51,705 nucleotides of DNA from Candidatus Aenigmatarchaeota archaeon (lineage in GTDB: Archaea > Aenigmatarchaeota > Aenigmatarchaeia > QMZP01 > QMZT01). The position numbers were made by a program. This document shows, piece after piece, positions 27,001 to 30,000 of the stretch (positions are counted from its first letter, which is position 1; the number at the start of each line of letters is the position of its first letter). The DNA lies in assembly GCA_041489155.1 (NCBI GenBank), contig JBGPQP010000009.1:1-51705 (forward strand). The letters are read 5' to 3'.

Positions 27001-30000
27001 GGTCGTGGTTGATGCGCGGAAAGGCGTCGCGCTCGAGCGCTGCACGCCGGTGTTGTGAACTACATAACCGTTTGCTATGAAATTATGCGACTTCTCAACC
27101 TGCAAATCCAAGGTTGGCTCATGCCCAACGCTCTTTATTTCTTTTATTTTTTCTACACCAAAGTGCTCGTTTCCTATCAAAAAGTTCGCGTACTTGTACT
27201 GCGAATGGTATTCTTCAACATTCCATTTCCTTGTTCTGCTGAAACAGATGTAACCGGCTTCGGAATCCTTCAAAAGAGCTCTTTTCGCCACAATAGTTCC
27301 TTTTGGTGTTTTTATTTTATGCACCTTACCTACTCTGTAGCTCATTGTCTGCAAAAGAAGCCTTAAGGTTTCCAGCAAACGGAAGCTGGCGGAAACGTAT
27401 CGCATGCTTCCGCTGTTTTTCACTTTATAGCCATCGGAAATCATCAACCCTTCTACAAATGCCTCCTTTTCATCAAGCGGCAAAGTGAATATCCAGTCAG
27501 GGATTATCTTGTTCTTCGCACCTGAGCCGAAACCGAGCGAATTTATGAAATTGGCGATGTTAATTGAGTTTATGTGAACCTCATTTTTGTCTTCCGAATA
27601 TTTGCTTCTGAATATCTGGTTGTGTAGTCCAATCAAAACCTTTCTTTCATGCTTTCCTTCGGGCAAAGAAAAACCTATTTCGCTTCTTCCGCTTCTCACC
27701 CATCCGTCTCCCACATAAATGCCAAGGTACTTCATGATGCCGGGGCTGCTGTTTCCCGGTATGACTGCATCGTTAAGCTTGTTGACTTTGTAATCATTTT
27801 TAGTCACCTTTCTTATGTTCGGGAACTTGAAACTTTTTCCTTTATCAGACCCATTTAGCACAACGACTTCATTTCCATTCTTCAATTCCTCTACGGTTTT
27901 CCACACGAGTTCGCTTTCCCTCCCTCTTCCTCTATGACTAACTACAAGAAAGGGGTGATTGCCCGTGGCTTTAATTATGTGGTGCAAAGTCTTAACCTCA
28001 AATATCTCTTTCACGCCGTTATCATAAACTCCCGCACAATTTCTTAAAACTAGCTTGTGGGTATTGGGGTCAAAAGAATATAATTTATCGCCTTTCCTGA
28101 TTTCAGTGATTTTGCGCAGGCCATTTTCCGTCATAATCCAAGCGTCTTTTGTAAGGCAATTCATGTAAGCCTCGTTGTCGAGGCAGATATAACATACCTT
28201 CTCGCCGCGTTCGAGCATGCCGGAAAGCGCCTGGAGCCCGATGTCGAGCGTGCCGCCGTCGCCGGCGATCGCGATTACGTTGCCTGCGCGCCCCTGTTTC
28301 TCGAGCGCCAGGGAAACGCCCGCCGCTATCGCGGCCGCGTTCTCGAAAGCGCCGTGAATATAATTGACCCCCCACGATGTGTTGGGGAACTGCGAACTGA
28401 CAATTTCGAGGCACGACGTCGCATTCACAACGATCGTGTTTTTTCCGGCGACGCCTAGTATCGCGCGGACGGCGATGGTTTCCGGACAGCCCGAGCAGTT
28501 GGTCGAGCCCTGGAAGAAAAGCGAGCACGCTTCGCAACCCTTCGCCGATTCGGCGACTTTCGCGTTCTTTACACCCATATCAGTCCCCTTCTCTCCTGCC
28601 TGATATCGCGGAATATCTTCAAGAAATCATCAATCTTTACGTCGCGCCCTCCAAGCCCGCCGATGAACGTGCTGACATTCGTCTTCCTCGTGAGGCCGCG
28701 TATCTCGTAGCACAATGCGCCTCCCATGCCTGGCGAGATGTCCTTCTCGAGAACGCCTATGGAATGGATGCCCTTTATGGCCTTCTTTATCTCGGTCATC
28801 GGGAAGGGTCTGAAGCTCTTCACGCGGATGAGGCCCATGTCCTCTATCTTCTTCTCGCGGATGACGTGTTTTGCAGTCCCTGCGAGCGAGCCCATTGTTA
28901 CGAGCGCGTATTTGGCGTTCTCCATGTTATACGTTTCAATCAGGCCGTTGCCGTAGCTGCGACCGAAGATGTCTTTGAATTCGGCGTTCGTCTCGCGTAT
29001 CGCTTCCCTGGCCCAGCGCATCGCCTCGTGCTGCTCTATCTTGAATTCCTGGTAATGGTCAGGCCCTGCCCACATGCCCTGGCTGATGGGCTCTTTGAAA
29101 TTTATCGCCCGGCCGGCATATTTTGGCAGGAATTTCATTACCTTCGCCTTTTCAGCGATGTCGACCGGCTCGTAGACGTGCGACAGGAAGAAGCCGTCTA
29201 TGCAGACCATTACCGGCAGCGAGACTTTCTCGTGTTCCGCGATTTTGTAAGCTTGAATCACCGTATCGAAAGCTTCCTGCGCGCTCTCGCAATAAAGCTG
29301 TATCCATCCGGAATCCCTTGCGCCGAACGAATCCGACCAGTCGTTCCATATGTTCAGCGGCGCGGAAAGCGCGCGGTTCGCCGTGACCATGACGACAGGC
29401 AGCCGCATGCCGGAAACTATGTAAAGCATTTCATACATCAGGGCGAGGCCCTGACTTGACGACGCCGTGAAAGTGCGCACGCCCGTGGCCTGCGCGCCGA
29501 GGCAGACGGACATGGCCGAATGCTCCGACTCGACGTTGACGTACTTCGCCTTCATCTCGCCGTCCGCGACCATCTCCGAGAGCCGCTCGATTATGTGAGT
29601 ATCCACTATTCAACAAAATCGGATTCGTTGAATAATTGTGGCGTGATCGGGTAAGCTGCAACTACACCCGGTTCACATAATTTGACGGCTTCAGCGATCG
29701 CGTGGCTTCCTTCAATGACTTTTTTCATCATCTCAAACCTTCGGATTTCGATTTGCTTTTCAGTCTTATTTATCCAGCTTCTTTTCTATCGCCTTGAAGG
29801 GGCAGAGCTCCATGCAGAGCAAACAGCCCTTGCAGTAATCATAATCCACTTTCGCTGTCTTTGTCTTCCTTCCCGCGAGCTCGGCCAGGTCGATGCAGCC
29901 TTCCGGGCAGTATTGCACGCAGATGCCGCAGCCTTTGCATTTGTCGTCAAGGAAAATGGGCCTGAACGTGCGCCAGCCTGATGTCTTGCGCGTCTTCGAG

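Follow-up and report, generated by a model that had tools for sequence, protein, structure and literature searches.

The porA locus of Candidatus Aenigmatarchaeota archaeon raises the question of how a subunit of a central metabolic enzyme can be made from a gene whose reading frame is broken near its 5' end, and whether the break is a defect, a true division of the gene or an intron. The window analyzed here is the whole stretch of 51,705 nt from contig JBGPQP010000009.1 (assembly GCA_041489155.1), whose minus strand carries the four-gene operon porGDAB (Table 1).

An interrupted porA gene and its relatives

In the window, porA appears as two ORFs in different frames, one of 41 aa (29606..29731) and one of 345 aa with a GTG start (28569..29606). 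The genome-wide survey's note had attributed the break to 35 nt located between Q and T of the motif YPITPQT, and the sequence bears this out: exact excision of 29601-29635 by a script yields a single frame of 375 residues, in which ...YPITPQ is joined to THIIE.... The first ORF aligns with residues 1-32 of its orthologs and by itself matches no Pfam family, and the POR_N match of the second ORF begins at model position 20, with PFOR_II also matched (215 and 84 bits, respectively). Because the POR_N and PFOR_II domains are present and the operon also encodes gamma, delta and beta subunits, the porA product is most readily assigned as the alpha subunit of a four-subunit pyruvate:ferredoxin oxidoreductase, the substrate of which may be pyruvate or another 2-oxoacid. 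The rest of the por operon is intact. No other gene of the genome has a strong POR_N match; a second, weaker match in a 644-codon frame on contig C7 belongs to a different oxidoreductase.

Table 1. Features of the por operon and of the proposed intron, in positions of the window.
Feature	Position	Strand	Remark
porG, gamma subunit	30062..30643	-	Pfam POR; opens the operon
porD, delta subunit	29766..30065	-	2x[4Fe-4S] ferredoxin domains (Fer4)
porA exon 1	29636..29731	-	32 codons, ATG to ...YPITPQ; dN/dS 0.12-0.18 among carriers
Insert of 35 nt (proposed phase-0 BHB intron)	29601..29635	-	Comparative boundaries and predicted fold
porA exon 2	28569..29600	-	THIIE... to stop; POR_N and PFOR_II domains
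porB, beta subunit	26545..28578	-	TPP_enzyme_C; intein inside at 27055-28158
Central 4-bp helix, 5' strand CCAC (exon 1)	29638..29641	-	Paired in 7/7 carriers
Central helix, 3' strand GUGG (intron)	29603..29606	-	Includes the opening GTG of the second ORF; predicted fold and carriers
5' three-nt bulge AAU	29635..29637	-	Predicted cut after 2nd nt = exon 1/intron boundary; letters vary among carriers
Inner stem-loop h', 11 bp, 6-nt loop	29607..29634	-	77/77 cells paired in carriers
3' bulge AUA	29600..29602	-	Predicted cut after 2nd nt = intron/exon 2 boundary

The genome under study (G000) was compared with three congeneric genomes (G001, G002 and G003). As the survey's note had claimed, the 35-nt insert is found at the identical place in two congeners (G001 and G002), and exactly these 35 nt are missing in another (G003), where the flanking letters permit no shift of the boundaries. 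PorA matches at E <= 1e-30 are present in 68 of the 91 genomes of the order. Among the best 30 porA loci, 27 run through the site in a single frame, and the interruption is confined to three, those of G000, G001 and G002; all 27 uninterrupted orthologs share an invariant heptapeptide, YPITPQT, at this position. The insert is also carried by four JGI metagenome contigs (L042-L045), which gives seven distinct carriers, all of them closely related. Its length is exactly 35 nt in 7/7 carriers, a constancy that splicing would not demand.

Contigs of four further sediment runs (X3-X6), which may stem from one campaign, span the insert with 0 differences. Because these contigs bridge the insert, an assembly error is not a workable explanation, and the presence of the insert in two other genomes and in the four JGI contigs adds to the case; a sequencing or assembly artefact is hardly credible. 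The joined, intron-less form was found in none of the four sediment DNA runs. A low-depth contig (X4, record 13) seems to hold the insert of a relative in a 38-nt variant, 3 letters longer.

The distribution of the insert was also examined with a pattern scan for 25-55-nt inserts at the site, tied to CCG as the first Pro codon. Two matches are obtained in genome_contigs (G001 and G002) and five in metagenome_contigs, four of which are the porA carriers; the fifth, a 26-nt match in L041, lies outside porA and is due to chance. When the order's 91 genomes were searched with a covariance model (R1), scores of 75-77 bits were reached by G000, G001 and G002 only; the next match (G063, 24.6 bits) is an intergenic hairpin between divergent genes. 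The insert is single-copy in the genome, and a repeat or MITE was rejected as its source, as a blastn-short search of the insert against the genome returns only itself, followed by matches of <=15 nt.

Predicted fold of the insert and its conservation

The survey's note had described a relaxed bulge-helix-bulge (BHB) fold, and its 4-bp CCAC/GUGG helix, bulges and inner stem are recovered in the unconstrained minimum free energy (MFE) fold of the 71 nt around the insert, which consists of the CCAC/GUGG helix, the 3-nt bulge AAU, an 11-bp stem and a 6-nt loop. The MFE is -17.1 kcal/mol (z -3.57), and equally good folds are obtained in 0 of 200 shuffles. As the BHB is defined in the available part of PMC5829648, a 4-bp helix lies between two 3-nt bulges. 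All four pairs of the porA central helix are Watson-Crick pairs in all seven carriers. The 5' bulge is closed by this helix (H) and by the 11-bp inner helix (h'), and the 3' bulge is closed by one outer pair only, that of G 29642 with C 29599. Because the outer helix is this single G-C pair, which barely closes the 3' bulge, the insert is predicted to adopt the relaxed HBh' form of the BHB, a type for which motif scans are unspecific. A long-range outer helix of 9 bp between exon 1 (29673-29681) and exon 2 (29590-29598), suggested by RNAalifold, was rejected, with 4/9 of its pairs broken in carrier L044.

In the register used here, each bulge of a BHB is cut after its second letter. Applied to porA, this register places the cuts at AA/U and AU/A, which removes exactly 29601-29635 and restores YPITPQ/T. 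The cut sites derived from the fold are thus the same as the boundaries fixed independently by the comparison with G003. The register was calibrated internally on the tRNA introns of the same genome, in which ARAGORN makes 19 intron calls among 34 tRNAs; 8/19 form an in-register BHB whose intron is exactly as long as ARAGORN's call, and the outer (anticodon-stem) helix measures 5-7 bp in seven of these eight.

As a genome-wide control, each position on both strands was scored as a mock 35-nt intron (n = 2,266,529). An in-register central helix with 4/4 pairs is found at 44,933 positions, and the same helix combined with >=4 bp of inner helix at 875. A Watson-Crick central helix with >=8 bp of inner helix occurs at three positions, and >=11 bp of inner helix at one, which should be porA itself (inner helix 11 bp), identified by count rather than by coordinates.

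The predicted pairs are conserved among the carriers: all 16 are kept in the seven sequences (112/112 pair cells), compared with 32-50% after a shift of the partners by 1-3 columns. Variation is concentrated in the unpaired intron columns, 9/9 of which are variable versus 5/26 of the paired columns, as counted from the alignment; of these nine columns, six form the loop, two belong to the 3' bulge and one to the 5' bulge. One inner-stem pair is seen as C-G, U-A and U-G, and the compensatory change from C-G to U-A that the survey's note had reported is therefore confirmed in the carrier alignment. Three further inner-stem pairs show a one-sided change to a wobble pair. In the covariation shuffle control, 150 of 500 shuffles attain the observed score, a result that is not significant because the sequences are related and vary little. 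The covariation is thin, resting on the one double change.

Selection, splicing enzymes and competing explanations

Both exons are under purifying selection among the carriers, with dN/dS values of 0.12-0.18 for exon 1 and 0.11-0.14 for exon 2. The exon-2 dS among carriers ranges from 0.41 to about 1.0, and such low dN/dS values at a dS of up to about 1 indicate that porA stayed functional over a long divergence. When the insert is read as the tail of the first ORF, its pN/pS is 0.55, compared with 0.03 for the 20 codons that end exon 1 and 0.23 for the 20 that begin exon 2.

The survey's note had further pointed to a splicing endonuclease and an RtcB ligase in the same genome, and both are present on contigs other than that of porA. 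The single EndA (396 residues, contig C7) matches 4FZ2, the epsilon2 EndA of ARMAN-2, over its full length (E 6e-110), and RtcB is matched at 519 bits. Tyr160 and Lys161 of the ARMAN-specific loop are conserved in this EndA together with Lys282, as counted on the alignment; the roles of these residues are treated in the accessible part of PMC12397907. According to the part available of PMC5829648, introns of the HBh' and hBH forms are removed only by (alpha-beta)2 and epsilon2 enzymes, and the epsilon2-type EndA has been described as a broad-specificity enzyme. Judged from these matches, the host appears to encode an endonuclease type able to cut relaxed motifs, in addition to the RtcB ligase. 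Full-length EndA orthologs were found in 5/5 relatives searched, intron-less ones included.

These observations suggest the following scheme. In the porGDAB transcript, the CCAC of exon 1 would pair with the GUGG close to the insert's 3' end, and the 11-bp inner stem would stack on this central helix, leaving AAU and AUA as the bulges of the 5' and 3' splice sites, respectively. An epsilon2-type endonuclease would cut each bulge after the second letter, the exons would be joined by RtcB, and the 35-mer would probably be circularised. The joined mRNA would then direct the synthesis of the full PorA with the invariant YPITPQT. Cleavage, ligation and translation of the spliced mRNA are what we infer from the DNA. 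All of the computational tests run favour a BHB-type pre-mRNA intron, the reading put forward in the survey's note, which is supported by the identity of the cut sites with the comparative boundaries, the structure in seven carriers, the purifying selection, the place of the intron-less G003 within the carrier clade (see below) and the pair of EndA and RtcB. The 35-nt insert is thus quite probably a BHB pre-mRNA intron within the coding sequence of porA.

The main rival is a truly split gene, in which the first ORF ends at UAG, translation reinitiates at the overlapping GUG, and polypeptides of 41 and 345 residues assemble into PorA. Purifying selection on both ORFs is equally predicted by such an arrangement, and the UAG/GUG overlap is retained in 7/7 carriers; however, the GUG and the UAG arise automatically, because pairing with CCAC and the inner stem dictate both. 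The GUG also lacks a preceding purine-rich, Shine-Dalgarno-like run, unlike the starts of porA and porB. A split gene would offer no reason why the insert should form a BHB with cuts that recover the ancestral junction exactly, a motif this strong being found at 1 of 2,266,529 positions, and it would place a break and approximately 11 extra residues inside a motif that is invariant in 27/27 orthologs. The high pN/pS of the tail (0.55 vs 0.03 in the adjacent codons) and the fact that 0/27 other loci are split at this site also speak against two separate polypeptides, and we regard a split porA as improbable.

Inactivation of porA by a shared 35-nt insertion would be in keeping with a frame-breaking insert in the reduced genome of an uncultured organism, in which a second, weaker POR_N gene is present on C7. 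A pseudogene is nevertheless very unlikely, given dN/dS values of 0.11-0.18 in both exons at an exon-2 dS of about 0.4-1.0, the absence of further frame breaks in porA, the conservation of the insert stems while the loop is free to vary, and the intact state of the remaining operon. We attach a similarly slight probability to a ribosomal solution, either programmed -1 frameshifting or bypassing (hopping) of the insert, for which phage T4 gene 60 provides the comparison. The hairpin and the in-frame stop do resemble recoding sites, but both frames are open over one codon only (from the UGA of the second ORF's frame to the UAG of the first), no slippery heptamer is present there, and no codon matching a take-off codon precedes the landing site. 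Frameshifting would, in addition, insert approximately 12 residues into the invariant motif.

History of the proposed intron and comparison with known spliced transcripts

With the insert taken as a BHB intron, its presence and absence can be placed on a phylogeny. In porG, porD, porA exon 2 and porB, G003 is nearer to G000 than G001 and G002 are. In a tree built from 354 nt of exon 2 away from the neighbourhood of the intron (13 rows, rooted on five genomes of other genera), carrier L044 lies outside a clade (support 97/95) that unites G003 with the remaining six carriers. A tree in which all carriers group together is rejected by the AU test (p 0.03), for a group that was chosen after a first tree had been viewed. 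On this phylogeny, the intron-less G003 lies inside the carrier clade, and at least two changes of state are needed for the presence and absence of the insert. The likeliest history is a single gain with a clean loss in G003, the alternative being transfer to the same site.

The exon sequences around the insert show an unusual pattern. Between 29551 and 29750, G000 is placed with G001/G002 by 23 informative sites and with G003 by 9, compared with 107 and 211 elsewhere. Within the first 52 codons, third-position identity is raised among carriers (0.81 vs 0.59 for G000-G001; 0.94 vs 0.76 for G001-G002), and that of G003 is lowered to 0.44-0.54 vs 0.61-0.66, approximately the between-genera level. 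This pattern fits either a constraint on the exon flanks at the RNA level in carriers or recombination tracts that accompanied gain or loss of the intron.

A wider picture can be drawn, which we consider rather doubtful as a whole. The intron may be old and sometimes moving, predating the divergence of the carriers, cleanly lost once, and swapped or lost by recombination together with approximately 150 nt of exon flank. Because PorA could not be made without splicing, the tRNA-splicing machinery may gate, and perhaps regulate, central energy metabolism, and some of the "split genes" and "pseudogenes" of DPANN genomes with an epsilon2-type EndA may conceal further mRNA introns.

A scan of G000 for BHB motifs combined with an open frame gave 39,762 raw matches, 1,220 after filtering and 137 past a codon-usage filter. 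On motif and frame only, no second intron in a protein gene was recognized among the best 45 of the 1,220 and the best 40 of the 137. Apart from porA, these matches resembled gene boundaries or reads in the wrong frame; they include the starts of two paralogous genes and that of a truB/cbf5-like gene. The scan is not evidence of absence, because it has no homology criterion and its codon-usage filter would miss porA itself, whose score is 0.024.

If the intron is real, mRNA splicing by the tRNA machinery would be more than the curiosity of one gene, as it would extend to another superphylum, another endonuclease architecture and an enzyme central to carbon and energy metabolism. Some genes that look "frameshifted" in metagenome-assembled genomes would be accounted for, and metabolic reconstructions of DPANN archaea, in which porA would otherwise be scored as broken, would be affected. 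The porA transcript, at about 100 nt, would also be a simple and testable substrate for an epsilon2 endonuclease.

Introns in the cbf5 pre-mRNA of Crenarchaeota were reportedly described by Watanabe in 2002. The survey's note had held that cbf5 was the only such case among archaeal protein genes and that porA would be the first in DPANN and in a metabolic gene. For coding sequences this stands: in the part available of PMC7714728, cbf5 is the sole case, and the accessible text of PMC2738675 (Yokobori 2009) gives no confirmed case past cbf5 as of its writing. Full-text literature searches, which had most subscription journals outside their range, yielded no description of such an intron in porA or any DPANN protein gene. 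For mRNA in general the claim fails, because HVO_1309 of Haloferax volcanii carries a BHB intron in its 5' UTR, as described in the same part of PMC7714728, and "only cbf5" is therefore confined to coding sequence. The porA gene would be the second archaeal coding sequence that needs BHB splicing, alongside crenarchaeal cbf5.

A comparison with these systems, as far as the consulted portions of the sources describe them, reveals both common and distinct features. The cbf5 introns, which occur in Desulfurococcales and Sulfolobales (PMC2738675, in part), resemble that of porA in being short, in lying inside the coding sequence with a relaxed BHB-like motif, and in occurring in hosts with a broad-specificity EndA. 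Their presence likewise varies among lineages, with losses, and annotation often mistakes the interrupted genes for frameshifted or split ones. In contrast to cbf5, which encodes an RNA-modification enzyme in Crenarchaeota with an (alpha-beta)2 EndA, porA encodes a metabolic enzyme in an aenigmatarchaeote of the DPANN with an epsilon2 EndA, and its splicing is deduced from DNA. HVO_1309 shares with porA an mRNA BHB motif cut by the tRNA splicing endonuclease, a step that is proposed for porA, whereas its motif lies in an untranslated leader, its reading frame is uninterrupted, and the host EndA is different. The non-canonical HBh' and hBH tRNA introns of the ARMAN-2 epsilon2 EndA belong to the same motif class and are processed by an orthologous enzyme (PMC5829648 and PMC12397907, each in part). 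Unlike those introns, the porA substrate is an mRNA that has no tRNA body and whose outer helix is 1 bp.

A further parallel exists in the HAC1/XBP1 system, in which a short, frame-changing mRNA intron is removed independently of the spliceosome by an endonuclease and then an RNA ligase as part of a regulated stress response. This unconventional splicing of HAC1/XBP1 mRNA by Ire1/RtcB in eukaryotes is mentioned in PMC13149111. The scheme proposed for porA is like it in outline and differs in the endonuclease and the motif.

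RNA pairing around the probable porA intron

In the RNAalifold prediction, exon 1 pairs with the first nucleotides of exon 2 over 9 bp, forming a helix that would close the 3' bulge of the probable porA intron from a distance. The pairing is unbroken in six of the seven carriers of the intron, with four of the nine pairs broken in the remaining one, a metagenome contig (L044); four of the nine pairs, as read by eye, are also broken in the intron-less congener G003.

An aligned contig of a diverged relative from sediment run X4 (record 13, low depth) differs from window 29387-29653 at 35 of 267 nt. 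At this low depth, the insert seems to be present with three additional letters, and three changes would each replace an A-U pair by G-U; one of these changes would also abolish the UAG that ends the first porA reading frame within the insert.

Synonymous sites within approximately 100 nt of the intron (window 29484-29731, loci L007-L009) are unusually highly conserved among the carriers, and those near the intron position are close to saturated in the intron-less congener G003; the kinship in the remaining operon is the opposite of that near the intron. The pattern could be caused by a recombination tract or could reflect a constraint at the RNA level.

Positions of the features discussed in the window and on other contigs of the genome
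Feature	Contig	Position	Strand	Remarks
Predicted 9-bp helix	window	29673-29681 with 29590-29598	-	RNAalifold
porB intein	window	27055-28158, within porB 26545-28578	-	Intein_splicing and LAGLIDADG_3 domains
Start of first paralog	window	25543-25623	-	BHB-like scan match
Start of second paralog	C3	1704-1756	+	BHB-like scan match
tRNA	window	43721-43843	+	123 nt long, against a 71-position Rfam model
Second POR_N gene	C7	21728-22276	+	69 bits, within a 644-codon open frame
Epsilon2-type (three-unit) splicing endonuclease	C7	L036:859-2046

Other inserts, look-alikes and paralogs

The TPP-binding motif of the neighboring porB is interrupted, after ...NEAYMN and before TG..., by a 368-residue intein (aa 141-508). 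The GC content of the intein is approximately 0.34-0.47, compared with approximately 0.55-0.70 in the flanks. The porB genes of G001, G002 and G003 are exactly without the intein. Two adjoining genes of one operon thus each carry a putative self-removing insert in a conserved motif.

Strong BHB-like matches in the scan were also obtained at two gene starts, which are not introns; they belong to paralogs with similar N-termini that share a conserved hairpin-forming start region. The second POR_N-containing gene probably encodes another 2-oxoacid:ferredoxin oxidoreductase.

tRNA introns and the splicing endonuclease

The tRNA set of the genome is rich in introns, which are predicted in 19 of only 34 tRNAs by an ARAGORN intron search of all contigs, with some of the calls, such as those labelled Pyl and Stop, being doubtful. 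Orthologs of the epsilon2-type endonuclease of this Aenigmatarchaeota genome are found in all five relatives searched, at identities of 77-84%; according to PMC5829648, enzymes of this type were, as of 2018, known only from Micrarchaeum/ARMAN relatives.
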